Below, in pieces: positions 1,984 to 20,000 of a stretch of 20,000 nt of DNA; the stretch's first letter is position 1, and every line of letters begins with the position of its first letter. The position numbers and the translations under genes are program-made. This DNA comes from Ancylonema sp. (lineage: Eukaryota), in contig JBFLGF010000018.1 of the NCBI GenBank assembly GCA_050230475.1, positions 121,410-141,409 of the forward strand, written 5' to 3'. A model generated the notes under the pieces. The model saw only the letters and a program-made list of their open reading frames with translations. It searched no databases and was not told the DNA's origin.

Positions 1984-2228
1984 TAGTGAGTTAGCATCTT
2001 GGTGAATTGATGAGCGTAATTACAGTAATCCTGCAAAAAATTCAATTTGGAGTAGCTCTTATGTGATCCCTCCATTTTTTCTTGCCCAAAAAAATAAGTC
2101 TCCAAATCATTGTTATTACTTGTGGCGAAGCCTACCTTTAGTTATATTTTCACCATAGATGTACCCAAATGTAGGGGGGGGTTGCTCCCGAACTTCTTCG
2201 AACGCGCTCGGACCGAATCGTAGGCACC

Positions 2229-2449
2229 TGACGTACCTATAGAGATCGATGACGTCACAAACGTGCGGCTAGGCTAAGCACACTACAAACACGCTAAGGA
2301 CACAAGCGGACACGTGCGGATAGAGACCCGTCCAAGTCCCGTACAACATAGCAAGCAAAGAGCTAACTACTTGCATCACAAACACATATCATCACACACA
2401 CACTCGCACATCTAGCAAGCAAGCTAGCGTGCACCACTTTGGTTTTACT
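2229..2449. repeat. Split repeat B, terminal copy
   Basis: 221 bp; 6 substitutions versus 2928-3148 by manual alignment (~97%). Confidence 0.95.
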
Positions 2450-2451
2450 AT

Positions 2452-2925
2452 TATCCAAGGCAATGGAGACCTTGGTTGGCCACATGCGCCGTGAGCTGGC
2501 GATCTGTTCGGCTAGTGGGTATCCTGCCAACCTCTAAAATACAGCACACCGCAGCGGCATCAAGCACACAGCAAGGCAAGACACGTGCGAGGCGATGATA
2601 GAAGTTCTGGGAAATTATGAGAAAAGTTGGGGTACAAAGCTCTTCCTGTCCCTATTCTAGTGCAGTGGGTGAGGCACCCACGCACGTGCGAAATTCAGCG
2701 CAAAAGTAATATGCGTAACGTTTACGAGCAAATCTGGCTAGACCAATCAGAAATCACGGTCAGTGGAGGGTCATCCATCTTACGGTCTCACGTTACAAGG
2801 GTGACTTGTAGACCGCTATAACGAATGCAAGCTACTTGGATATGGTAGGGGCGTATCTACTAGTAACCGATCGGCTATAACGGGGGAGAATCTGCTATAA
2901 GCTACCGATCCCTAGCGCTACGACA
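2452..2925. repeat. Split repeat A, internal copy
   Basis: 474 bp; about 20 substitutions and one 5-bp indel versus 5656-6124 by manual alignment (~95%). Confidence 0.95.
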
Positions 2926-2927
2926 GC

Positions 2928-3148
2928 TGACGTACCTATAGAGATCGATGACGTCACAAACGTGCGGCTAGGCTAAGCACACTGCAAACACGCTAAGGAC
3001 ACAAGCGGACACGTGCGGATAGAGACCCGTCCACGTCCTGTACAACATAGCAAGCAAAGAGCTAACTACTTGCATCACAAACACATATCATCACACACAC
3101 ACTCGCACATCTAGCAAGCAAGCTAGCATGCACCAATTTGGTTTCACT
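2928..3148. repeat. Split repeat B, internal copy
   Basis: Starts TGACGTACC, 2 nt (GC) after the CA end of repeat A. Ends at the C-run that forms a PPT on the minus strand. Confidence 0.95.
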
Positions 3149-3166
3149 CCCCCCCCCAATCTCTCG
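3147..3166 (-). other. Polypurine tract-like sequence abutting repeat B
   Basis: Minus strand reads GAGAGATTGGGGGGGGGAG|TGAAACC, and homology between the two B copies stops exactly here. Confidence 0.65.
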
Positions 3167-4559
3167 GCTGAGATCACCAAAGCCAGAGGTTGAAAACTCA
3201 AAGGCTATACTACAAGTAGGCCCCCGCAAGTTCCACCCACCCCTGCAAGACATCGTAGTAGACCTCGTGATAAGAACACAACAGGGCCCCAAGTGGAATG
3301 TCTGCTAAGGGTGGAGAAATAAAACAAGTAAACATTGGAATGCTGCACACTAAGAAAACTACGCACCACAACAAGTCGGCACACTAAAGAGCTTCGGCGG
3401 TACCGCAAGTCTTGTAACCACTCCTATGGGTCTGAGCTACTGGAGTGTCTCCCCAGTCTGTGGCAAATGTGAAAAGTTGGTGAAGTTTGATCTTGCGTGA
3501 AACAAATGAAACCACGAAAAGCCAAAGAAAATAGTTCCAAGCGCCATGCGGTACCCGCGCCACACCACAAGTTGTCAGTATGAAAGTTTTCCATTCCCCC
3601 CCCCCCAAGCTGATGACTCGTCTGTCGAAGCAGCTTGGCTATACCGAGTACAGGGGTAGAGATGAAGAAGTTATCAAAGTGACCCCCCCCCCAGATTGCA
3701 CCCCTCTCCCCCCCCCATACTACAAAGTCAGAGTTTCAAGGTGAGGAAGGGAAGGAAAGGAGTCGCGCGCTGATGGAGATCTAGCGGCTGGCTGCAGAAC
3801 TGCTGAGAGCTGGCCACACTTATCCCAAGTGCGCAAACTGTCCCCCTTTCTGCCCCCCCCCCCAGCCCCCCCCCCAGCCCCCCCCCTCCGTTTCCACGAG
3901 GTTCAAAGCTGGTTGTCTGAGAGGGTGAAGGTGGAAGGGTAGAGAAGGCTGAAGAGAAGAAAAAGGGTGTAAGGAAGGAGAGGGACCAGGGTGATGATCA
4001 GCCACATAGACTGGGCTCGATGAAGTGCACCGCCCACTACATATACCACACCGCTCACCGCTGGCTCCACTCCAAAGTGAACACTGACCAGGAGGGTGGT
4101 CCAGGTGCTCATACAGTAAAGGCCGTCGAGGGAAAAGTTGCTGCACGGGTGCCAAGGTTGAGAGACTTGCACCCGCCAGATGGTGAACACCGCTGCGCAG
4201 CTTCTGAACAAGAGGGGCCTCACGGGCTGCTGCTGAACGCAAAAGAAGACCAGCCAGCGGGAGGCCAGATGAACACATATCGACTTGATCCAAACTGCTG
4301 CGTGGAGACTGCTGCGCCTGACTGTACGGAGCCAGGGTCTGAAGTAAAAGCTGGTTCATAGGCTTTGTAAAAGGTTCAGATTGAGTTTGAAGGTTTAGAA
4401 TGGGAAGTGTGGGAAGGTTAGGAAAGAGGAAAGAGGGAAGCCACTTTCCGAGGTGGAGTGGTGCTTCTGCTGCTCCTGGCCACGGATCCTGCAACGACTG
4501 CTGCGCTGCTGTGAGGACCCCTGCTGGCGCCACCACTTCCCCCCTGCGACCCAAGCCAG

Positions 4560-5424
4560 GGTCGAGCTTCTGCGTTGGCAACTGCCGCTTTTCACAAGGT
4601 CGCGCCAACGGCTCCATAGTGGGCACACAGGCTGGAGGCTTGCTCCCTGCTGCAAAGAGTGGCTGCAGTTGTCCAGAAGACCACCCTATCGGCTCCAGCA
4701 GCTGGCAGGCTGGACGCACACTCTAGGGTGCAGACTTTCAGCTCCGCGCTCCACTTGCCATGGAGATGGTGCACAGGAGGGACCTGAATTGAAGAGGGTA
4801 CGCCGGATCGATTTCGATCTTTACCGCCCTGGGCAAAGCATCTTAGAAGCGCAGAGCAGCCTCCCGTGGCAAGATCCGTCTAGAATGCTCGCATGGTGTA
4901 GCGAGGTCGTCAATCTTGAAGAAGATGGTGTAGACTAAATCGCCTGGTTTTGCTTGAAAGTTTCTCAGCTGGTCGACAGCGTCGGAAGCGTTCGTGATGA
5001 ATCGCAGCCGAATCGCTGTGAAGATCGACTCGATGTCATCAGGCTCAACCACGGCCGGAGGTAGAGGTGGATGTGCTGGATCCGGAGGACATGCTGCTTG
5101 TCTCCGCCAGGTTTTCCAAGCTGTCCTTGCAGCTGCTCTGTATGCTTGTCGCTGATGGTCCGCATGACCGGCTGGAAGGACCGCAGTCCTTTCGATGACA
5201 TGGTCGGTCAGAACTTTCCTGGCATCCCGCCCGAGGACAGAAGCCAAGTCGTAGAGGAGGAACTCGATCTCTCCGTAGCCCTTCTTGATGCGAGCTGGTC
5301 GCATGCCTATCTTGTAGTAGAAGCCGCGAACATCTGTAAAGAAATTTGTCTGCTGACTACCAAGCTCCCCGTTGTAGGGAGGTATGGTATCGCCCATTTC
5401 TTCAGAATCGTCTTCTAAGTCCAT
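4560..5424 (-). pseudogene. gag: Retrotransposon Gag (capsid-like), disrupted
   Basis: ORF 5424-4843 has IPPYNGE near the N-terminus and IRLRF...AVDQLRNFQAKPGDLVYTIFFKIDDLA, resembling the gag major-homology region. It continues past a premature stop as RF*DALPRAVKIEI. A possible decayed zinc knuckle (CAHYGAVG...) lies at ~4600-4630. The downstream boundary is approximate. Confidence 0.65.
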
Positions 5425-5655
5425 ATCTCTCTGTCTTCGACCACCCGCGGAGCTAGCGGTGATGTGGAAGTTACTGAGTAGTCAATTGGGGAGCCAGACC
5501 GTGAGCCTGCGGGTCCTGACGCCAGAGTGTTGTCTAATAAGCTACGACCTAGACGGCCACCTCCACTACGCCATGACGTTCATCAGTCATGTGCGCATCG
5601 GGTGGGAGTCGTGCTTAAGCAGACCCAGCTGATAGATCTAACTTTTATGATAAAC

Positions 5656-6124
5656 TATCCAAGGCAATGGAGACCTTGGTTGCCCAGATGCGCCGTGAGC
5701 TGGCGATCTGTTCGGCTAGTGGGTATCCTGCCAACCTCTAAAATACAGCGCAGCGGCATCAAGCACAAAGCAATGCAAGACACGTGCGTGGCGATGATAG
5801 AAGTTACGGGAAGTTATGAGAATAGTTAGGGTACAAAGCTCTTCCTGTCCCTATTCTAGTGCAGTGGGTGAGGCACCCACGCACGTGCGAAGTTCAGCGC
5901 TAAACTAATATGCGTAACGTTTACGAGCAAATCAGGCTAGACCAATCAGAAATCACGGTCAGCGGAGGGTCATCCATCTTACGGTCCTGCGTTACAAGGG
6001 TGACTTGTAGACCGCTATAACGAATGCTAGCTACTTGGTTATGGTAGGGGCGTATCTACTAGTAACCGATCGGCTATAACGGGGGAGAATCCGCTATAAG
6101 CTACCGATCCCTAGCGCTACGACA
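5656..6124. repeat. Split repeat A, terminal copy
   Basis: 469 bp, ends ...CTAGCGCTACGACA followed by CACC. Confidence 0.95.
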
Positions 6125-6149
6125 CACCGCCAATCCGAACGTCCGCGAG

Positions 6150-6962
6150 CATAGTTAACTCCGCCCCGGGCGATTATTTTGCGCCCAATTTGCCACCTGG
6201 GGTGAACCCGCCCCGGAGCGAAAAATCGGGGCGAATATTGTGGGGCGTAGCCATAGACCAAAATACCGAAAAAAAATAAAAAAAAATGCCGCAATGCGGG
6301 GATATGGTCGGTTTTGTTCAAAACTGACTTCTTGGAGAGTGTACGCCATAAGCCACACGTCCGGCATCATCTAATGTCGCCCATGAGTCCGACTCCGTGG
6401 CGTGGCAACGTGTAATGCGACTTAAGTTAAAAATAAAGAAATAGTACTTGAGATATACAAAAGAATATTACACGAGTAAAGATGGCAGTCGTAGTAAGTG
6501 TTGTAGAATCTTGTCGGATTTGAATTTTTATAAGATGTACATGATCTACGTGGACTTGAGATCCTTTCACAAAAAGGGAGAGACTCCGGGCACCCCCCAA
6601 AGCGACTCCCTCCAACTTGCCCGCAGTCTCTCCCTTAAACATATTTCAAACAAATATAGCTTCGAAACGATTTTCGATATTCAAAATAACTGTTTTTGGT
6701 ATTGTAGAGGGGACCACGTAGACAAATTCTCATTTTTATTTATTTTTTTCCCGATCAATGTGGAGTCAAAAAATTGAAGAGACTTCGGGCTGTCGGAGGG
6801 GGGTGCCCGCTGTCGCTTTGGGGGGTTGCCCGCAGTCTCCCTTGAAAAAAACCTGAAAACCCCTCTAGGGTCGTACCCCGGACTCAATTCGCTCATTTCG
6901 CTTGGGGCACCACCCGGTTCGGGCTTGCCCGGGGCGGAATTTGAGGGGCGAAGCTAACTATG
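6150..6962. mobile_element. Non-autonomous TIR DNA transposon (hAT-like ends)
   Basis: TIRs CATAGTTAACTCCGCCCC (6150-6167) and GGGGCGAAGCTAACTATG (6945-6962) match at 16/18. Multiple subterminal CGCCCC/GGGGCG motifs occur at both ends. The 8-bp flanks (TCCGCGAG / ATTTAGAG) share only GAG, so no clean TSD. Confidence 0.6.
6574..6843. repeat. Nested inverted repeat / MITE-like unit
   Basis: AAGGGAGAGACTCCGGGCACCCCCCAAAGCGAC at the left pairs with GTCGCTTTGGGGGGTTGCCCGCAGTCTCCCTT at the right, around an AT-rich core. Confidence 0.55.
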
Positions 6963-7180
6963 ATTTAGAGCCCTATGATCCCGGAAATGATTTGCCCCTC
7001 GAGCTCTGCGCCCGGATGCTTGGGAGATCACGGCCTCACGGGGTCGCCCATCCCTTCGAGTCGACTCTGGGTATCAGAAAGGGCGGTCATTTGTTGGATG
7101 AGACGTACCTTGAAGACTTCCACTGCATTTCAACTGCATTCCAGGACTCGCGTAGGCACATCGCTTCGACTGATCGATCT

Positions 7181-9388
7181 ATGGCGGGTCAAGAGAGTCC
7201 CGACGCGCTGGGCTCTGCGACTGCGGCCCTGACATTCCATGACTTCCTGGAACGAATGCGGAATCCAGCAGCCGCTGATCTTGTGCGAAGTATCAAGAGG
7301 TACAAGTTCTTGTCCCAATATACAGGCTGTCCCGCATCAATGGCGTGTCTTGTGACGAACATGCTGTGATATAGAAATATCGAAACCAGTAGTCCTCACG
7401 GGGAGGTTTGGTGGGCGCAGTTTCATTGTGTCATTCATGGGCAAGGCGCCAAATGCGGAGAGCGACAGCGCTAGTGTCCATGAGTTCGTTAGCAACACAG
7501 AGCAGATGTTTCGAGAGCATTCTCTTTGGGCAGGCGCAACTGAGGAAGAGCTGGATTGTGCTGGAGAGGTAAATTGTCTGTTTGGTTGCCAAAAGTTAGT
7601 GATGGCGAGTATGTAGCATGAAGAAAAATTTCTGGCCCGGGGGTGTTATGAATAATGCACAGTCCACGTGCTTTCAGTAAGGCAGCTGCCAATGACACGG
7701 GTTTGGATGGAATTGTTTGTGTACATCTCCTCCCCCTGGCAAGTGGCCAAGTGATGAAGTAGCTACCCAAATGCAGTGCACAGCTGTGTGCAGTAATAAA
7801 ACTACAGCAGTACCTGCACAGCCGACGGACAAGAAGAGGCTAGCTGTTTCCTCCTAAAATTGAACCATCTTGATTATTTCCACCGGCCCCACGAGTAGCG
7901 AAGGGGTTTCAGACGTGCACCATGGCGCCTCTTTCTCCCCTGTTGGCAGGGCCTGGAGAAGTATCTGATGACCAAACTCTTTCCTCGTGCGTTCGCGCCC
8001 CTCCCCGAGGACGTGGCACGCGATGAGCGCCTCTTCACGAAGCTGGCTGCTCTCCAGCAGTTTGTACGGCCGGAGCACTTGGATATCCCCCCCTCCCACT
8101 ATAATGAGGCCTCCTGGTTGGTGAGGACCCCTCCGTAGACTTCCCTCTGTTCCTCCACTGCCTTCTGATGGGAGAGAAGGGAAGCCATGAAAGGAGTTGG
8201 TTGCGTTTCCCCTGCAGCTTGCTCAAAAGGAGGTTGGCAAGATGGGGTCCTTCAAGGCTCCGCGGGACAAACTCGTGTGCCTTCTCAACTGTTGCCGCGT
8301 CATCAACAACCTGCTCATCAACGCGCACCTGAGGGAAGGGGAAGGAGCCTCTCCAGGCGCTGACGACTTCCTTCCCGTCCTTGTTTACGTGCTGCTCAAG
8401 GTGACAAGCGGGTCGTTCCTAGGGCCAATACGAGGAGGGGATGAGAAGCACGGCATGCCATGGGAGTCTAGTTTTTGGGACTCTGTTTTGACTCTGTTTC
8501 GTGGTGCAGGCCAACCCCCCCCACCTACTTGCCAACGTGGCGTTCATTGAGCGCTACCGCCACCCCTCCCGCCTTGTGTCCGAATCTGCCTACTTCTTCA
8601 CCAACGTGGTGTCAGCGGCCACCTTCCTGGAGACCATGGACGCGTCCTCGCTCACCATGGCGCCACAAGAGTATGAGTCACAGTGGAAACACGCCATGGA
8701 GGCCATGGCAGACAGTGCAGCTCCCCCCGCCCCCGCCCCCGCCCTCGCCTCTACTGATGCCAGCCCTGAAGAACCGAGTGCCACCAAACCTTCTCTGCAG
8801 TCTGGGCATCAGAATACTGGGGCTGGCCTGCAAACCGAACAGGATTTTGAAGCTGATGTGGTGCGAGAGTACCCGTTTGTCTTCGCCACTGCAGATCATC
8901 AGAGAGTCGGGGATGTGGAGATTCTACTGAACCAGTACAAGGAACTGGTTCTCAAATATATCACCCTCTCGAGATCGGTAGCAGGTTCGTCGTCGGCCGT
9001 TCATCGTGCTCTGCCCAAGAAGGGCGATGAGCGTGAAGGGGGGGAAGAGAGACACGGGTCAGCGCAGGCTTTAGAGTCCCGGGAACCCGAAACTGTGCCC
9101 CACGAGGGTCACTCTTCTTTGTTTGATGGCCTGGTGATGGGCATGGAAGGGACAGAAGGCAGGACGGAGATGAAGAGGGAGGTGGAAGGGGATGAGAAGG
9201 CACGTGGTTCAGACCTGGAGTCCATGACGAAAGAAGTGGAGAGAGTGGAGGGAGATGGTAGAGGTGGAGGTTCCACCAAGGGGGGTACACATTTGTCAGA
9301 AAGTGGTGAGGAAAGGAGTGTAGAAGTTTCGGATGAAGTTCTAACCGACCATAGTATCCCCACACATGCACCATGGAGGAGAGGTTGA
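7181..9388 (+). CDS. VPS9A: Vacuolar protein sorting-associated protein 9A-like Rab5 guanine nucleotide exchange factor; join(7181..7299,7421..7568,7950..8120,8218..8400,8510..9388), about 499 aa
   Basis: The spliced product (1500 nt, four GT-AG introns, all in phase) reads FHDFLERMRNPAAADLVRSIKSFIVSF...HSLWAGATEEELDCAGEGLEKYLMTKLF...SWLLAQKEVGKMGSFKAPRDKLVCLLNCCRVINNLL...PGADDFLPVLVYVLLKANPPHL...ESAYFFTN (VPS9 domain). It also has the plant-type C-terminal block YPFVFA...VGDVEILLNQYKELVLKY. Colinear with Arabidopsis VPS9a as recalled. Confidence 0.95.
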
Positions 9389-10690: not shown

Positions 10691-11066
10691 GTCGTAGGAC
10701 CTGTGGGGGGGAAGGGTGTTTGCAGCCTCCTCGGAGAACACGTCTGCGAAGTCGTGGTACTCGGGAGGGAGCTTGGCTAACAGGGCGGGGTGTGGGGGGA
10801 GGTGCACAGCGTTCAAAAGTGCAGGTTTGGGCTGGGTATAGGGAGGGGGAGGGGGGGGGGAGGGGGGGGGGGAAGTACTGGAGAGTAAGCACTGAGCAGC
10901 ACAGTGTGGGCTGGTGAGGGACAAGGTGCCTGACTGCCAGTCTATGTTGGGGTTGTGCTTGTGCAGCCAGGGGAAGCCTAGGACGACTCGGCAGTGCGCC
11001 AGTCGGGTGACATCCAAGGTAATGGTTTCTGTGTGGTTGCCGAGGGATCGGAGTTGTGCCGAGAAG
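10690..11066 (-). pseudogene. pol: Gypsy pol fragment: protease C-terminal half and linker to RT
   Basis: SAQLRSLGNHTETITLDVTRLAHCRVVLGFPWLHKHNPNIDWQSG...EYHDFADVFSEEAANTLPPHRSYD. Confidence 0.88.
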
Positions 11067-11519
11067 TGTAGGAACGCAGCTGTGCCATGTAGGAATTATA
11101 TCGGATAGCCATGTTTGCTAGCATGCTAGTCCGGATTGCCGGTTAGTGTAACCGGTAGGGTTCCTCGGTTGTGCTTATAATGAGGGGCCGGACTTCTGTC
11201 CGGACACCCGAATCTGACGTTTCGATTGTGCCGTTTGTAGCACGTGCGGTCTAGATGGTTCCGAATCTAGACGTCTGTCCGGCGTGTGCCGTTGACAGGA
11301 TCTGACTGTTGTTGAGTTATGATAGGCCGACGGTTCGCAGACATGACCGTCGGCACGCTTTGTAGATTTATGTGGTGGACGAGGCATCGTGGTATACCTA
11401 CACGATGCCGACCATTGAAGATTATTCTTCCAACTCAACACTTTGTCATTGATCACTTCTGAGAGACGTAAGCGGAAAGAATCACACTGCCTCGCACCGA
11501 TCACGTCACATCCCTAAAA
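11067..11519 (+). repeat. Copia 5' LTR (core 11088-11519 plus 21-nt 5' extension)
   Basis: TGTAGGAATTATATCGGATAGCC...CATCCCTAAAA matches 17127-17581 with scattered substitutions and indels. Confidence 0.92.
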
Positions 11520-11532
11520 GGTTATGGGCCCA
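11520..11532 (+). other. Primer binding site, half-tRNA-iMet type
   Basis: GGTTATGGGCCCA directly after the LTR, the motif known from Drosophila copia-like elements primed by a tRNA-iMet fragment. Confidence 0.85.
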
Positions 11533-11734
11533 CAAGCGGTCTAGAAAGACGTTGTGTCAATAACTACAGATTCCACGCGATACGCTGCTAAAGGCACTCT
11601 GTGGTAGAGGTTATTAAGTACTGCACGTAATCCTTCGATTGCGCTGCCAGTGACTGAGGTGTGAGTAGCGCTGCACGAAACGCTCAAGAAAGCAGCTGAG
11701 AGCTGAGCACCAAGAATTTTAGGTGTTGCCTAAC

Positions 11735-14700
11735 ATGACGGAAAAGTCATACATTCCGGTCTTCACAGGAGCAGACTACAAAGGGTGGGCATTTAAAATT
11801 AAGTTCGGTCTGGCAGACAAGGAGCTGCACGACATTGTTATGGATTGGGGAAAATCGCCGAGGCAAGAAGAGCCTGCCGTGTTTCTACCACATACGCAGG
11901 ATGAGCTCGATACGCTGGAGGCTGCGGACGTCGCTAGAACGATCACAGCACGCACCCAGCTCATCGGTCGACAGACTCTCCATCGAGAGGTCTGGTCGAA
12001 GAAGAACATCGCTGCGATGGCCTACAGCGTCAAACACCTCCAGACGGGGGAGCTGACGCATGTGAGGAACTGCGCGACTGCTGCAGAGATGTGGGAGGCC
12101 CTGAAGTCTTTCTACGACATTCAGGGAGCCAGAAATTGCCAACGCTGAAGTTGAGCTCACGGCAATTATCATGGGAGAAAGCGGAGGAGCTGAGCGATTA
12201 CGTCAAGCGACTTCAGGAGCTGCACGATCGGCTGGGCATCTGGGGGAACCAGTCAATCCGGCAAAGCAGACGATAAATTTCCTGAATTCCCTGAACACTC
12301 GCTACAGCGCACGAGTGGAGAGCGTGATGTCCTGGGCAGTTTTTCTGCACCATCTCACTCTTCACGTCCCTCAGGCCGTCAGCACTCTGTCAGCTGGCGA
12401 TCGACGGGAGGTCTGCAACGACCGGAAGAGAGGGGCGCTGCCGGGAGGGCAGCAGTCCAATTTCGCTGGAAGGGGAGAGGTTACTCGGGCAGCTCCGGAG
12501 CAAGTCGACCGGGGAGGTGGGATCGGCGTTCCCGGAAGCCGCGACCTGACGAGAACTCAGTGCTACGGCTGCAACCAGTATGGCCACCTGAAGTCGGATT
12601 GCCCCGTGCGTCCGCCAATGAGGTGCCATGGCTGCAACCAGACCGGCCACAGGCTGTCGCAATGCGGCCAGCAACGGCACGGTGGAGGAGGAAGATCGGC
12701 TGGCTAGGGAAGTGGCAGTCCGAAACCTAAGTGCAGATACTGCGATAAGCTTGGACACACATTGGCAGAATGTTTGAAGCGTAAATCTGATCTGGCATTG
12801 TCTGCACCTGATTCGAATCTCCGTAATCAAGCTCAGGCTAGACTTGCTGCAAGACCAGACACACCTTTTGATGCCTCTAAATCCTTAGCTTATGCAGCAT
12901 TCTCATCTGACGCACGGATTGCGATGGCAGTTGGAACTGATTGTTCGCATCTGTGGCTTGATTCAGGCTCGACCGATCACGTCTTCGTAAACCGAGACCA
13001 CTTCGTCGAGTACGACACCAACGGTCCCAATGCAGCATTCTTCATCCACACGGCTGACGGCACGCCCCACACAAGCGAGGGGACAGGCTTCGTGCACGTG
13101 AAAGTGAAGAACGACGACTCCTCTTTCGTCGTCCCTCTCGCGGCTCTGCACGTCCCTACAGTCGCTGCGACCCTGGTGTCCACCGACTGCCTCGTCCAGA
13201 GACGGTGGGCTGAGCTTTGCCCAGACACCACATGGCCCCAAACTGACTAAGAATGGACTGAAAATGGGCTGATGTCAGCAGGCAGAGGAATGATCTGTCG
13301 TTGCTGCATGCATCTATCATCATGGCTGGTTCTTCTGGTCTGCAAGCTAATCTGTCCATCGGCATGCTCTGGCATGGCAAACTGGTTCACCCTGGTATAC
13401 CAGCCATGTCAGACATGGCCAGAGTGGTGATATACCGAGACTGAATCAGGAGGAATTGACTGAAGTCAGGGATTGTGAGATCTGTTGTATGGGGAAGATG
13501 GGACAGTAGGGGCATGCTATTGCTAGCGAGGATGTGGCCACTATGCCGAAAATGGGAAGGTTGCATCTAGATCTGATAGGTCCTTTTGGTGTTAAGTCAA
13601 TGCACGGAGGGTTTGACTACGCACAGACAGGGATAGAGGTCAACACTAGACTGTCAACAGTATCTCTCCTCAGGCACAAGAGCGAGGCTCTCAGTCAAAC
13701 GCGCATCACTGTACAGAAACTTGAAGTTGAGTCAGGACTGGCGTTGAAGTCTATCAGGACAGATGGGGGGGGTGAATACACAAGTAAAGAGTGGAGAGGC
13801 TATTGTGAGGATAAAGGCATCAGACATGAACTGACTGCTCCCTACAGCCCTCAACATAATGGAATGTGTGAAAGGTTGAACAGAACATTGATGGAAAAGA
13901 TGAGGTGTTTGCTGATGTGGTCTAAATTGCCTAAATCGTATTGGGATGTGGCACTGATACACGCAAACTGGTTAAGGAACAGGACCCCCACTAGTTCATT
14001 AACAGGGGGGATACCTATTGAGGAGTGGACGGGACGTCAGATAAAAATGGACAGAAGTCACACATTCGGCTGTCTGGTTCAATATTTGCTAGTTGGGCAT
14101 GATAAAAATAAACAAGGGGACAAGTATGCTGCCAGGACTGCTTTTGGGGTGGGCTGGCAGCAGATCAGGCTGGGTACAACATCATCGACCTTCGACCCGC
14201 TCAGAGCCGGTGATGGTGCGGACAGACGCGTTTCTTCGAGGAAGTGCCGGGGTACCCGAGACTCATGGGGGGGAGAGCTCCCCAGGTCGAGGCGAAAGCA
14301 GATGGACACTTTCTCCAGCTGTTCCCCGACACGGAGATGATGAGCCTACGGCTGGAGGGGTATCAGGACAAGCAGCAGTAACAGCTGCAACGCCAGCAGC
14401 AGAAGCAGAAGAAGCAGCAGCAGCTCTAGCAGCAGTGCCAGCAGCAGCTGCAGCACACAACGACCCAGGAGCCCAGATCCTAGTGTTACAGTTTCCGCCA
14501 CCATCAGCTGCTGAGGTCCCCATCTCTGTGGTTGAGCTGTCTGACAGCCAGTGAGGTATCAACAACGCAAGAGTGGCAGGCGAGGAGGAGGAAGTTCAGG
14601 GAGGGGGTGAAGGGGAGGGGCAAGGGGTAAATGCTGTGAGCATAGCTGAGAGGGTGATGGGGAGAAGGAGGGGAAACTTCGCCCACTTTGGGGATGTCCT

Positions 14701-16409
14701 CTGATACGATGGGGAGGAGTTTGACAACCAGGCGCTGGCAGCAGCCATTCAAGACGAGGAGTGGGAGGCGACATGCTTCTTCACAGGCTTCAACGGCCCC
14801 TCTGACCCTGGATTCTGTATGATTGGCCACGTCTGCTGACTCCTCCGACCCTCTAACGCTGAACCAGGCCATGACGAGGCCAGACTTGGGACCAGTTGGT
14901 TAGCTGCTATCCAGGAGGAGCTGAATAGCTTGGGGGAATTCAACACCTTCGAGGTGTGTGAACTTCCACCAGGTCAAAGGGCTGTGGGGTGCAAATATGT
15001 ATTCAAAACAAAATACACACCCACGGGGAACCCTTGAAAGACATAAAGTCAGACTGGTCGCCCAAGGTTTTCTACAACAAGAAGGAGTTGACTATAATGA
15101 AATATTCGCACCTGTAGTAGAGTAGATAGTACCTCTCCTCTATCTCTCTTCTACTAGCGATTGCGAATCAGGAGGGTTGGGGAATTGAACATATGGATGT
15201 AGTCACTGCTTTCTTGCACGGAAGACTGACGGAAGAAGTGTACATGAAAATTCCACCAATTTATGGAGATTTGAGTGAGGGGCTGAGGGAAAGGTTCTGA
15301 GAATGAGGGGGGCACTGTACGGACTGAAACAGAGTAGCAAGGTCTGGGGTGAAATGTTCACAACCTTCATGCTCAGTATAGGGTTCAAACAGTGTATTAA
15401 TGGACACATGCATATACACCAGGGGAACAGGACAGTCACGGATCATAGTGGAATACACATAGATGATTAGGTGATAGTTGGTCCTAACACCGTGGGTCAT
15501 TAAGGCATTCAAACAGGAACTATCAGGGAAAGAAATTCAAAATGAAGGATCTTGGGGCCCTAACCCATATCCTGGGGGTGGAAGTGAAAAGGGACAGACA
15601 ACAGGGGGTGCTCTCGTCAACAGGGGGTGTTGACGTTGCATCAGGGAGGGTTCATAACACAGGTTCTGGAACGTTTTGGCATGGCAAACTGTAATCCTAC
15701 AAAACTACCCTTACCACCTGGACTGGCATTTCACCAAGCCTGAACAGATAACTGAATTCCGGGGAAAAATTCTCATTTATGCAATGAAACACACCAGACC
15801 GGATATTGCGCATGCACTGGGCGTACTGGCAAAACACATAGGGAATCCTGGGACTGCTCACATCAAATCCTTACACCAATTCAGATATTTAAAGGGTACA
15901 GTGGATCACGGAATATGCTACGTGAGGCAGAGGAAGTTAGAGATCAAGGGGGGTACTGTGATGCTAGTTGGAACAGCTGCAGTATGACTGGGAAGTCGGT
16001 CACAGGATGGGTCACTACTGTTGGGGGAACTGCTTTAAGCTGGAAGTCACAGAAATAGTCTACAGTCGCACAGAGTACAGCAGAGGCTGAATATATTGTT
16101 GCCTGTAGTGTGTCTAAGGAATGCTGTTACCTTAAGTCGCTCCTGCATGAGCTCAAACTCCCTAATGAAATTACAGTTTACAGTGACTCAACTGCTGCAC
16201 TCTCAATGATCCAGAACCCAGTCCAACGCCAAGAGGCCAAGCACTTCAATGTGGTATACCACTGGGTGAGAGAGTGCCACAGAACTGGCAGGCTGAAGTA
16301 TATGTATCTGGCAAGGGCCAATCAACCAGCCGATATGTTCACTAAGGCTCTTCCACAGGTCTTACTTGACAGACACGGAAAGTCTATAGGTTTTGGGAGG
16401 GTTAACTGA
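11735..16409 (+). pseudogene. gag-pol: Copia gag-pol polyprotein with multiple frameshifts and stops
   Basis: Gag: IPVFTGADYKGWAFK, TAAEMWEALKS, three CCHC knuckles (CYGCNQYGHLKSDC, CHGCNQTGHRLSQC, CRYCDKLGHTLAEC). Protease: WLDSGSTDH. Integrase: LHLDLIGP, IRTDGGGEY, TAPYSPQHNGMCERLNRT. RT: W..AIQEELNSL, MDVVTAFLHG, ALYGLKQS, TRPDIA. RNase H: STAEAEY, YSDSTAA, KHF, ADMFTKAL. Confidence 0.93.
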
Positions 16410-16935
16410 AATGGGGGTGCACATTAGGTTCTAGGGGATTTTCGGCTGCCATGCTGTGTTCGGCAGGGGGTGTATGTTCTGTTATTATTCTTGCAGAATG
16501 CACCTGTGGAGGGCTCTCAACGCTCGTCTATCCACTAAGTCACCCTACTCCTTTTTCTGCCCTGGAAAATACTCGAGGACACCTGAAAAGTTGCAGATCT
16601 GCTTGCATCTAGAGTTGTCAGTTGTTCATGAATTCTGGATATGTGTTGCCACTCATATTATTATTTACAAATGTTGTGTCAAAAGTTCGTTTGATTTGGT
16701 GAAGTATTGAGAAAGTTATGAAGTTTTAAGAAAATGGTGAAGTTCTGAGAAAGTTGAAGTTGTGCTGCGAAAGTTGTGAAGTTTTGCATATTTTCAAGTT
16801 ATTCGGAGAAAACTACAGAAGATTGACTTGTTGTCATTTTTGTATTGCCCTAACTTGTGGTATTTGTTTGTATGTTCATTCAGGGCTCCGGCCCGAAAAA
16901 CGACTAAGGATCTGGAGCGATCCTTCTGGAGTGAG

Positions 16936-16980
16936 TTCCGATCGGCTTCCGATTGGCTTCCGATCGTCTTCCGATCGGCT
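16936..16980 (+). repeat. 11-bp tandem repeat (TTCCGATCGGC)x4 in the Copia 3' UTR
   Basis: ttccgatcggc ttccgattggc ttccgatcgtc ttccgatcggc. Confidence 0.85.
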
Positions 16981-17117
16981 GATATTTTAAATGCCTTAGC
17001 ACATTGATATGCTAGATAAGACCCTACTATTCCAGGGCTATGCAATGGTCTTGCCATGACTTAGCTGTTGAGAGTGGTCCTTCGGTGCTGACTTAATGCC
17101 AACTTGGCATGGCATCC

Positions 17118-17126
17118 GAGGGGGTG
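17118..17126 (+). other. Copia polypurine tract
   Basis: GAGGGGGTG immediately before the TGT of the 3' LTR. Confidence 0.8.
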
Positions 17127-17581
17127 TGTAGGAATTATATCGGATAGCCACCCATGTTTGCTAGCGTGCTAGTCCCGGACTGCCGGTTAGTGTAACCGGT
17201 AGGGTTCCTAGGGTGTGCTTATGTTGAGGGGCCGGACTTATGTCCGGGCACCCGAAATATGACGGTTTCGATTTGTGCCGTTTTGTAGCACGTGCGGTCT
17301 AGATGGTTCCGAATCTAATCTAGACGTTATGTTTTGTCAGAGTGTGCCGTTGACAGGATCTGACTGTTGTTGAGTTATGATAGGCCGACGGTTCGCTGAT
17401 ACGACCGTCGGCACGCTTTGTAGATTCATGTTGTGGACGAGGCATCGTGGTATACCTACACGATGCCGACCATTCAAGATTCCAACACAATACTTGTCAT
17501 TGATCATTCTTGCTTCTGAGAGACGAGTTCCTTGTACGGAGAATCACTGCCTTGCACACCGATCACGTAACATCCCTAAAA
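17127..17581 (+). repeat. Copia 3' LTR
   Basis: Direct repeat of 11088-11519, followed by TSD AGAAG. Confidence 0.93.
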
Positions 17582-18888
17582 AGAAGTAGCAGGTAATGGG
17601 GTCAGCAGCTGGAGGGCTGCCATCAATAAGCTCGACCGGGATAGGCTGGGGATGGGGGTGGGTGGGTCGGTTGTTGTCTGCCAGGATCTGGGGGTCTCTG
17701 AAGTTGCCTGACGCCCCAGAGTCGATCAACACGCGGACAGGTATGGGTGGGAGGGGGTAACGGAGTAACTGGCAGGCCAGCAGGAGCTGGCGGGGGAGCT
17801 CGCGGGGGTGGGGAAAGGGGGAGGGTAGGGAAAGGGGACCCGCAGAGACCCCTCCTAGGACTGTGTGGGGTGGTCGTTTTTTGACTCTAAGTGCTGCAGA
17901 TCCAGGAAGCGCACGGTGCGTCCCTTGCCCTTGTTGGGACAAGTCCTGTTGTCATGGCCTGGGAGGCCATAGTAGTGGCACAGGTGGCCAGCCACACGGC
18001 GAGCCATTTCCGCTGGTTCCACTTTCAGGACCTGGCGGGGGGTTCCATCGATGTCCATGGGTACGATCTGCAGGTGAGAGGGCACCTGCTGGGGAGGAAA
18101 CTGATCTGCAGCTCTGGCTTGGGGGGGAGTATGCAGGGGTTTGGAGGGTCGGTCGAGACTGCTGGCAGCCATGCGCTGTTCTCCACCTTTTTGACAAAGG
18201 TAACGTACGCTGAAAAAAGGTTTCAGAAGGGTCCTGCACTTTGTGAGTATTTCTCGACGGAGCTCCGGTTTAAAAGCTTCTCGAAGAAGGTATAGATGCT
18301 GGGGTGGTCAGGCCAGGGGGGGAAGGTCTTAACAATAGCCCTAAACTGGACAGTGAAGTCTGACACTGAACCGGTTTGTCTGAGTTCGCGCAGATGTCGT
18401 TCCTTGGTGAAGTCGGGTGTCGCCCTCCCCGAACAGTCCTGGAGATCCTTCAGCAGTTGAACTGGCCAAAACCGTCCGGGAGGTCTCCGTTGTCGTCAAG
18501 GTAGTTAGAAACCAGTCGTAGTAGGTCCAGTTAGTAGAGTGGCCACGTAGTGGGCGGTCTGAACAGGATTGTGGAACCGCTTAGGTGCCAGCCTGAGCAT
18601 AGAACGGACCCGGTGGCAGAATGTAGCGACATCTTTGGAGGTCCCATCAAATGTAGGAGGGTCAGATGGAACCAGGTCTTTGAGTGTAGGGATAGGCTGG
18701 TATTCTGAAGCGGCTGGATCGCTTCCAGAAGCCATGTAATTTGTTTCATAAGCAAACTGGTCCGAAAGTTCTGTAAATTTGCCTTTAATGTCTTTATTTT
18801 CCTACGCCAAAACTCTGAATTTTTCATCTTGAGAATGTCGTATCTGACGTAAAACTGCCATGACTTCCTCTAAATTTGGAGAAGACAT
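17582..18888 (-). pseudogene. gag: Gypsy gag and N-terminal half of protease, frameshifted
   Basis: ATG at 18888 (MSSPNLEEVMAVL). Capsid motifs at ~18680-18300, zinc knuckle at ~17990-17935, protease DSGA at ~17710-17730. Several stops and frameshifts. Confidence 0.88.
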
Positions 18889-20000
18889 AGTTGAATAGGT
18901 AGGAGATGAAAAAAGGGAGGCGGCTGAATGAAGTTCAGATTCAGGATATCTTAAAAAAAAAACTTCAAAAATTCCTATCAAAGTGTTAGGAACGGATGCA
19001 AAAGGCGTCCCTAGCAAGCAAGTTGCAATATGCACACAAGCGGAAAGATGGCGAAATTCCGGATAGGACGAGATGGCATGAGCCGATGGAAATGGTGGTG
19101 ATATAATCGGGAGGCAAGTACATGAGTTGATAGGAATGCCTAAAGGCATTCCTATCGACTAGATATAGGAACTGGCTAAAGTCTGAATCACGCTACAAGT
19201 GGGATAACTCACTCCGAATATGATAAAGACACATCAAGTCTGGCTAACGGCACAATTGCCGGAGCTAAGGACACATCAGAATACTCCCTAGGGGCCAGGC
19301 GGCCGCTAGGGACACCCACAGAACTCGCTATAGAGGAAACTGAGCTAGTAGCGCTCTAGCTGTTAGGAGTGGACTGCTAAGTGTGGAGACCTCGCTAAGG
19401 AGCCCTAGTGACTGTAGCGAGGGTCCTAACACCCATAGGCGTTAAAATTATAATATTATCCCCAGGGGGGGGGAGGGGACTTACTACACCCCAGGGGTGC
19501 CTGGATGTTTTCAAAATCATGAAATGTATTTGGTGATCCGATTACAACGTGGGAGTATTCAATTTAGGACCTAAGACTTTATATTGAACTACTTACTGTG
19601 CAAAATGGTCAGTACTCACTACTTGATCGAATTTCGACGTCCGAATTCGATTACTGAAATTGTCCCAGTGCGGCACGCATGCCGCACGCGTGCACTCGCG
19701 CACCCGTGCCGCATGCGTGCGCAAATCTTGCGCACGGTGCTGACCCATCTATGCCCAGAACAATTAATAAACGTCCCCTACCCCATCCCCTACCCCTAAA
19801 ATTGTAATGAACTATGGTCCCCTACCCCACTTAACCCCTACCCTTCATATATGGTCGTTTCCCCCCCCCCCCTTCTAATATTGATTTAGAAAAATATTCT
19901 GACTATTGTAACGCGAGGACAGAGCTGCCAAGATCAGACAATGATCTAGCGACCTGCTTGATGGCGGAGATCGACGGTGGTACACCTCTGAGCCATAATC

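Follow-up and report, generated by a model that had tools for sequence, protein, structure and literature searches.

A decayed split-repeat retrotransposon copy with TG...CA ends, a 4-bp target-site duplication and a candidate integrase attachment site inside its LTR

The stretch from position 2225 to position 6128 of the window (the whole 20,000-nt piece of DNA that was analysed) is an old, decayed, pol-less copy of a retrotransposon in a plant-lineage genome. It is likely to belong to an integrase-dependent, Gypsy-like LTR family with the attachment sites in the middle of the LTR, i.e. to be a pol-less copy with the order A-int-B-GC-A-B. We speculate further, at roughly even odds, that in an integrase-encoding LTR lineage a templated CA-GC-TG palindrome in mid-LTR has taken over the role of attachment site from the cDNA ends, and that end-joining followed by internal cleavage of a two-LTR circle would be its obligatory integration route. 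Read on the minus strand, the element consists of A1 (6124-5654), an internal region with a broken gag, a purine tract, B1, GC, A2 and B2 (to 2229). The features are as follows:

2225..2228, no strand: left 4-bp target-site duplication, CACC (chance 0.43-0.55%)
2229..2449, minus strand: repeat B2, 221 bp, the 3' end of the element, with the minus-strand terminus CA (215/221 identical to B1)
2450..2925, minus strand: repeat A2, 476 bp (22 substitutions and a 5-nt gap relative to A1)
2906..2947, no strand: internal head-to-head junction of both element ends, CA-GC-TG, the predicted integrase cut site
2926-2927: GC spacer between B1 and A2, 2 nt
2928..3148, minus strand: repeat B1, 221 bp, beginning one base past the purine tract
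3149..3165, minus strand: polypurine tract, 15/17 purines, predicted plus-strand primer
3166..4755, minus strand: degenerate internal DNA without recognisable protease, RT, RNase H, integrase or recombinase
4756..5424, minus strand: broken gag core with a predicted retrotransposon capsid fold
5418..5579, minus strand: gag N-terminal piece in a frame that differs from that of the core, similar to the N-terminus of P0010
5654..6124, minus strand: repeat A1, 471 bp, the 5' end of the element, with the minus-strand start TG
6125..6128, no strand: right 4-bp target-site duplication, CACC

The split direct repeats in the order A-int-B-GC-A-B, which a preliminary description of this DNA had proposed, are borne out by repeat alignment at the same coordinates. 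A2 (2452-2925) aligns to A1 (5656-6124) with 448 matches, 21 mismatches and one 5-nt gap (95.5%), and B2 (2229-2449) is identical to B1 (2928-3148) at 97.3% of the positions. Repeat A reaches 2 nt further than first noted, to 5654-6124 and 2450-2925, with one transition in the added part, and because of this extension A2 and B2 join without extra bases. The element does not carry two complete direct LTRs at its ends: its termini are the A and B halves, and the sole full B-GC-A unit is internal. B2 begins at the very base at which B1 takes over from the purine tract; the join of A2 and B2 therefore resembles a join of two reverse-transcription ends, and we infer that it is one, as a random deletion would not hit the purine-tract boundary with no extra bases. 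Both repeat pairs are equally diverged (22 substitutions in A versus 6 in B, Fisher p 0.30), which fits the two pairs having been made at one insertion.

The ends of the element were also found as previously described, i.e. TG...CA with 15/20 inverted identity (18/30 over a longer stretch) and CACC on both sides, and so was the purine tract before B1. When six candidate units within the element were tested, a duplication of at least 4 nt was present only around the whole A-int-B-GC-A-B unit. In 200,000 random position pairs the chance of identical abutting 4-mers was 0.43% and that of any 4-6 nt duplication 0.55%, and the boundaries are not post hoc picks because they are defined by the repeat alignments and not by the duplication. 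Inverted identity of 15/20 has a chance of 1e-5 at a fixed position pair, and an equally purine-rich tract occurs in 0.7% of 17-nt windows. In this one copy we thus find TG...CA ends with a target duplication in the 4-6 bp range, and a purine tract immediately ahead of the 3' repeat, as in Ty3/Gypsy-type elements.

Both outer ends also meet inside the element as CA-GC-TG, and the 20-nt arms of this junction, symmetric at 15/20 positions, form the strongest inverted symmetry in the element. A motif merged from the ends matches only the four ends in the window, where 0.01 matches are expected. TG...CA symmetry is absent from the ends that the purine tract defines (4/20).

The gag core is open from 4846 to 5424; an in-frame stop lies at 4843-4845 and the similarity continues past it. 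The N-terminal piece is identical to the N-terminus of P0010 at 37 of 47 residues (E 3e-21). A model of the core (pLDDT 82.7) was compared with 48,161 chains, and the top six rows as well as 26 of the 50 best rows were retrotransposon or retroviral capsids, including Ty1, PNMA2, Arc, copia and Ty3, with Z of 5.1-6.1 for the top six, which is below the level that the tool treats as reliable. Foldseek returned nothing at E<=0.001 for the gag model against PDB and viral structures, and a second gag model, led by P0006, reached a pLDDT of 51. The core is accordingly predicted, at middling Z, to have a retrotransposon capsid fold. The early designation of this region as gag is supported by the predicted fold but not by Pfam, where support for the core was not found; Retrotrans_gag and zf-CCHC each had a weak match in one of the 17 aligned proteins. 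A PDB sequence search with the gag alignment gave two matches only, both unrelated (E>=0.83). When 3149-5655 was translated in all six frames, stops being written as X, and scanned with Pfam, only two weak, unrelated matches came up, and no remnant of pol, RT, integrase or tyrosine recombinase was seen in this copy. No primer-binding site is recognisable by eye after A1, and a search for self-priming complements of at least 9 nt to either repeat came up empty, which leaves minus-strand priming unaccounted for in the LTR-type reading.

The pathway that we propose is as follows. The RNA would start inside A1 and end inside A2, and ordinary LTR-type reverse transcription with a purine-tract-primed plus strand would yield a linear B-GC-A-internal-B-GC-A molecule. 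Its ends would be joined, either in a two-LTR circle before insertion or by end-joining just after it, giving the A2-B2 join. A DDE integrase supplied in trans would nick the upstream CA-GC-TG site behind the CA of each strand and produce a pair of CA-3'OH ends, each with a 5' overhang of 2 nt, i.e. the normal processed substrate; strand transfer with a 4-bp stagger would then lose the GC and duplicate CACC. No cut but one at the upstream site leaves a copy that can be re-transcribed to the full template, which would explain why the order has been kept. The earlier suggestion that the LTR is B-GC-A, starting at the purine tract and carrying the attachment sites in its middle, fits every feature that could be tested and is partly supported, the observations coming from a single copy.

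The most serious competitor, which we nevertheless consider unlikely, is that the arrangement is a one-off and not family-wide: either a TG...CA unit (2928-6124) joined head to tail with a short A-B unit (2229-2925), or a rare and aberrant product of an otherwise ordinary LTR family, inserted as one piece by an integrase. Both sub-units do share the 15/20 inverted TG...CA ends, and the 22 differing sites between A1 and A2, together with a transversion share of 14/28 among all A and B changes, could reflect two templates; if the 3-nt ACT that borders the internal region on either side is taken for a duplication, the region could be an insert in an ordinary 697-bp LTR. However, the internal join of the short unit coincides exactly with the purine-tract boundary and the end of A1, neither sub-unit has a duplication of its own, and the mismatches show no significant clustering (p 0.19), A and B having diverged to the same degree. 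Inverted ends are absent from the internal region (4/20), on which ground a DNA-transposon insert into an LTR was rejected as well. Moreover, the layout is already published for a multi-copy Gypsy family, as far as the legends of PMC5890265 describe it.

It is less probable still that the element is a non-autonomous PAT/Ngaro-type tyrosine-recombinase element, in which CACC would be due to chance or target homology and the junction palindrome would be a recombinase binding site. That recombinases work on inverted binding sites flanking a short spacer speaks for such a reading, as does the absence of a visible integrase; a tyrosine recombinase is not seen in this copy either, which lacks RT as well. 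At the left end CACC stands in place of the CAGC of the junction, three of the four positions being equal, and this counts against the integrase reading. The order A1-internal-B1-A2-B2 is also the textbook layout of these elements in the portions of PMC8969392 and PMC4157794 used here. On the other hand, DIRS-order elements are described in the same portions of PMC8969392 as lacking target duplications. A chance CACC pair costs about 0.5%, and a crossover at the shared CA needs a point change on the left plus a chance CACC on the right; besides, the duplicated CACC differs from the element's own junction sequence (GC), which a recombinase core would equal. The 2-nt spacer between CA and TG has integrase geometry, whereas tyrosine recombinases use spacers of 6-8 nt. 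The predicted capsid-type fold of gag, like the purine tract at B1, speaks for the LTR group, and it is because of this fold and a true 4-bp duplication that we favour an integrase element.

An assembly artefact joining repeat copies is very improbable: the paired repeats differ at 28 sites and by a 5-nt gap, the joins are exact to the base, and a duplication at the outer ends is not something that an artefact would create. A retrozyme was rejected, since Rfam on 2000-6400 gave no ribozyme; its two sub-threshold miRNA matches lay on a C-rich run.

It is instructive to compare the element with known systems. The preliminary description knew of no family with this combination of features, which is not right: in KnitGypsy-Dnmt3 of Klebsormidium nitens, an element with Gypsy domains, the repeats are of the DIRS type (de Mendoza et al. 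2018, PMC5890265, Fig. 4c legend), their order being given as A-coding-B-A-B (Fig. 1e legend). The repeat layout has thus been reported once before, in a green alga, but without explanation. Like the present element, KnitGypsy-Dnmt3 has the DIRS-type order and a streptophyte host, but it is coding-competent and has a Dnmt3 domain, whereas our copy has only a broken gag, and the likeness lies in the repeat order. As far as those legends go, target duplication, end sequence, purine tract and mechanism are not given. A literature search, with most subscription journals and Repbase reports outside its scope, found no integrase element with split repeats besides that in PMC5890265. PAT, Ngaro, VIPER, TOC and kangaroo share the A1-internal-B1-A2-B2 layout and an internal B-A junction that equals the joined ends, but they use a tyrosine recombinase and are without target duplications, according to the sections drawn on here (PMC4157794, PMC8969392, PMC6681497, PMC9210276, PMC8547959, PMC3783388). 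The present element, judged from one copy, agrees with PAT, Ngaro and VIPER in the split-repeat layout and differs in having the 4-bp duplication, as well as TG...CA ends, a purine tract and a gag with a predicted capsid fold.

Canonical Ty3/Gypsy and Ty1/copia elements share with it the short inverted TG...CA ends, a 4-6 bp duplication, the purine tract and, as far as the predicted fold goes, a capsid-fold Gag. They differ in having their attachment sites at the reverse-transcription ends and a full LTR on each side of the body, while here the proposed attachment pair lies inside the LTR. Cutting of abutted circle ends with a 2-3 nt spacer by a DDE enzyme is familiar from IS30, IS21 and IS3/IS911, although these are bacterial DNA transposons without reverse transcription and differ in this from the present element. 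A parallel to the proposed step is foamy virus, whose integrase, in the sections of PMC1180852 consulted, cuts on both strands a circle-junction palindrome whose conserved CAs are 2 nt apart, leaving processed ends with a 2-nt 5' overhang, the 2 nt being lost on integration. In foamy virus and HIV-1 the palindrome is formed by joining of cDNA ends and, according to the parts of PMC1180852 and PMC1905944 used, is a side path of disputed weight. The palindrome of the present element is, in contrast, fixed, templated and in mid-LTR, and it would be the sole route.

Two-LTR circles are usually regarded as dead ends. Whether an integrase can use the circle junction as its real substrate has been debated since the 1980s, as recounted in the consulted sections of PMC1180852. 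If our reading is true, nature would offer a case in which the circle-junction route is required, namely a family that has split repeats and a fixed CA-GC-TG inside the element. Split direct repeats would then go with the opening of a circle by a retroelement and not with a particular enzyme, and the family might link Gypsy with PAT/Ngaro elements. Such repeats would not be diagnostic of tyrosine-recombinase elements, and families of this kind may therefore have been filed wrongly under DIRS or overlooked by LTR finders.

The merged end motif had no loci in viral contigs and none in metagenome contigs, and of the candidate stretches picked out by gag-based locus scans, 596 in metagenome contigs and 601 in prokaryote genomes, none was confirmed. 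A long polyprotein relative of gag was found neither among 3053 nor among 7993 longer candidates, both being weak tests. Relatives of gag itself were two among 505 protein candidates of similar length and 14 in a representative protein library; the ten gag relatives looked up are unnamed ENA proteins on contigs of 624-1414 bp. The host genome carries a plant-type VPS9a gene (E 2.8e-22 for the match to 2efc, which we take to be of plant origin, versus 2.6e-6 for Rabex-5-type chains), which we count in favour of our reading.

The split-repeat feature at 2229-6124 is real, and the layout in the preliminary description, two direct-repeat pairs with TG...CA ends and CACC flanks, was borne out by global alignment and end comparison. 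Read along the minus strand, the element runs A1, internal region, purine tract, B1, GC, A2 and B2, and it has the following parts.

Repeats and gag pieces of the element
2229-2449, minus strand, repeat B2 (215 of 221 positions match B1, global alignment)
2452-2925, minus strand, repeat A2 (against A1, global alignment: 448 matches, 21 mismatches, one 5-nt gap)
2928-3148, minus strand, repeat B1
4846-5424, minus strand, gag core, in a frame differing from that of the N-terminal piece and followed by an in-frame stop
5418-5579, minus strand, gag N-terminal piece (37 of 47 residues identical to P0010, a protein relative)
5656-6124, minus strand, repeat A1

Repeat A runs 2 nt longer, with one transition (A1 5654-6124, A2 2450-2925), so that A2 and B2 join without extra bases. 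The repeat pairs differ at 28 sites, 14 of them transitions, and divergence is equal for the A and the B pair (Fisher p 0.30). When the internal 2.5 kb was scanned in all six frames, stops being read as X, neither a protease, RT or RNase H nor an integrase or recombinase was found; the element is an old, dead, pol-less copy.

The termini, TG...CA, share 15/20 inverted identity, which at a fixed pair has a frequency of 1e-5, and CACC adjoins both the left and the right outer end. The merged motif of the two ends has four matches in the window (0.01 expected), namely the two outer ends and both sides of the internal GC. The predicted reverse-transcription LTR, B-GC-A, is 699 bp long; its own ends show 4/20 inverted identity and its middle 15/20. 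This middle, the CA-GC-TG junction at 2906-2947, has the highest symmetry of any site in the element. Four further sites in the 20 kb also reach at least 15/20, and the palindrome by itself is not rare; its weight lies in its coincidence with both element ends. As for the flanks, identical abutting 4-mers have a chance of 0.43%, and a duplication of 4-6 nt was found in 0.55% of 200,000 random position pairs. Six candidate units of the element were compared, and a duplication of at least 4 nt surrounds the whole element alone (a 3-nt ACT borders the internal region on each side). A copia element at 11067-17581 served as internal control, and its flanking 5-bp duplication was recovered by this test.

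The element likely behaves as an integrase-driven LTR retrotransposon whose permuted LTRs are cut internally. The purine tract (15 of 17 nt are purines; 0.7% of minus-strand 17-nt windows have at least 15) would set the start of B-GC-A, and an RNA that begins within A1 and terminates within A2 would yield a linear B-GC-A-internal-B-GC-A cDNA. Joining of the cDNA ends would create the A2|B2 join, either as a circle before insertion or just after insertion, and the sequence fits both alike. Since B2 starts at the exact base that follows the purine tract in B1, this join probably stems from reverse transcription and not from deletion, and we regard this fit as the best single argument for such an origin. 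If both strands of the upstream CA-GC-TG were then nicked 3' of CA, CA-3'OH ends with 2-nt 5' overhangs would result, and strand transfer with a 4-bp stagger would drop the GC and duplicate the target. According to the text examined, foamy-virus integrase makes this cut in vitro at the junction of its circle, with AT as the 5' overhang, and the 2 nt between the CAs are lost during integration (PMC1180852); HIV-1 integrase likewise cleaves its junction palindrome (text examined of PMC1905944).

A one-off dimer or aberrant insertion is an unlikely source of the same arrangement, and it would have to account for the base-exact fit at the boundary of the purine tract. Less probable still is a tyrosine-recombinase element. 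The layout would suit it, judging from the parts examined of PMC4157794, PMC8547959, PMC6681497, PMC9210276 and PMC3783388, and it could make use of the left flank, which equals the junction at 3/4 bases; this use, however, requires both a point change and a coincidental match at the right flank, and the text examined of PMC8969392 describes DIRS-order elements as having no target duplications. Mis-assembly is at odds with the diverged repeats and the duplication and is very improbable.

The proposed integrase-driven route does not account for two details. No primer site is recognisable 3' of A1; a short stem-loop closes just ahead of the end of A, followed by short palindromes at the expected primer site (5654-5690, minus strand), possibly indicating unusual minus-strand priming. 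The predicted cDNA ends share one trinucleotide (3146-3148 and 5654-5656), both copies of which are retained at the A2|B2 join (2447-2452), one with a transition; this may be coincidental (1 in 64) or relevant to end joining.

It is useful to compare the element with known systems. It is not a canonical Gypsy, having no paired terminal LTRs, and unlike PAT/Ngaro members it carries a target duplication and is probably not one of them. The earlier view that no known family has this mix did not hold: KnitGypsy-Dnmt3 of Klebsormidium nitens is described in a figure legend as combining a DIRS-element repeat structure with a Gypsy domain composition (de Mendoza et al. 2018, Fig. 4c legend, PMC5890265). 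The element resembles it in DIRS-type repeat order, the Gypsy domains being those of KnitGypsy-Dnmt3, and kinship is plausible. The text examined of that paper mentions neither a target duplication nor an end sequence or a mechanism, and the terms "TSD" and "integrase" are absent from three of its supplements. Outside subscription journals and Repbase reports, we found no further description of an integrase-type split-repeat element and no other KnitGypsy paper. For the layout there is a one-line precedent; no description of the mechanism appears to exist.

The gag is broken and had no match in a Pfam search. Two relatives show 81% and 72% identity, 14 were found in a representative library, and all 10 that were looked up are unnamed ENA proteins on short contigs. 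Of 17 aligned proteins, one gave a weak Retrotrans_gag match (E 0.026) and one a zinc-knuckle match, likewise weak (E 0.063). For the gag core, modelled by AlphaFold at pLDDT 82.7, there was no Foldseek match at E<=0.001; in a structure search of 48,161 chains, capsids of Ty1, PNMA2 and Arc filled the best six rows (Z 6.1-5.1), while retrotransposon or retroviral capsids made up 26 of the best 50. This enrichment supports a capsid fold, short of proof at such middling Z.

Four scans of viral contigs, metagenome contigs and prokaryote genomes found no DNA copy of the element, and no longer gag relative was found among longer candidate proteins (a weak test), so that family-level statements rest on one copy. 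A gene lies some 750 bp away from the 5' end of the element.

Neighbouring gene
6869-9388, plus strand, intron-containing VPS9 gene, a VPS9a-like Rab5 exchange factor

The VPS9a structure matches it far better than Rabex-5-type chains do, suggesting a host from the lineage of green plants.

The control element at 11067-17581 is a decayed copia (gag, zinc knuckle, protease and rve), with LTRs about 85% alike and the duplication AGAAG. Both LTRs end in AAAA, not CA, and the 5' LTR is extended by 21 nt that repeat its start. It splits a minus-strand Gypsy-type remnant (about 10700-11066 and 17582-19450; weak aspartic protease match, RT-start-like residues by eye) within the latter's protease region. 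The window also holds three imperfect palindromes (844-915, 19125-19160 and 19673-19720) and an exact 22-bp direct repeat (1622-1643 with 1778-1799).
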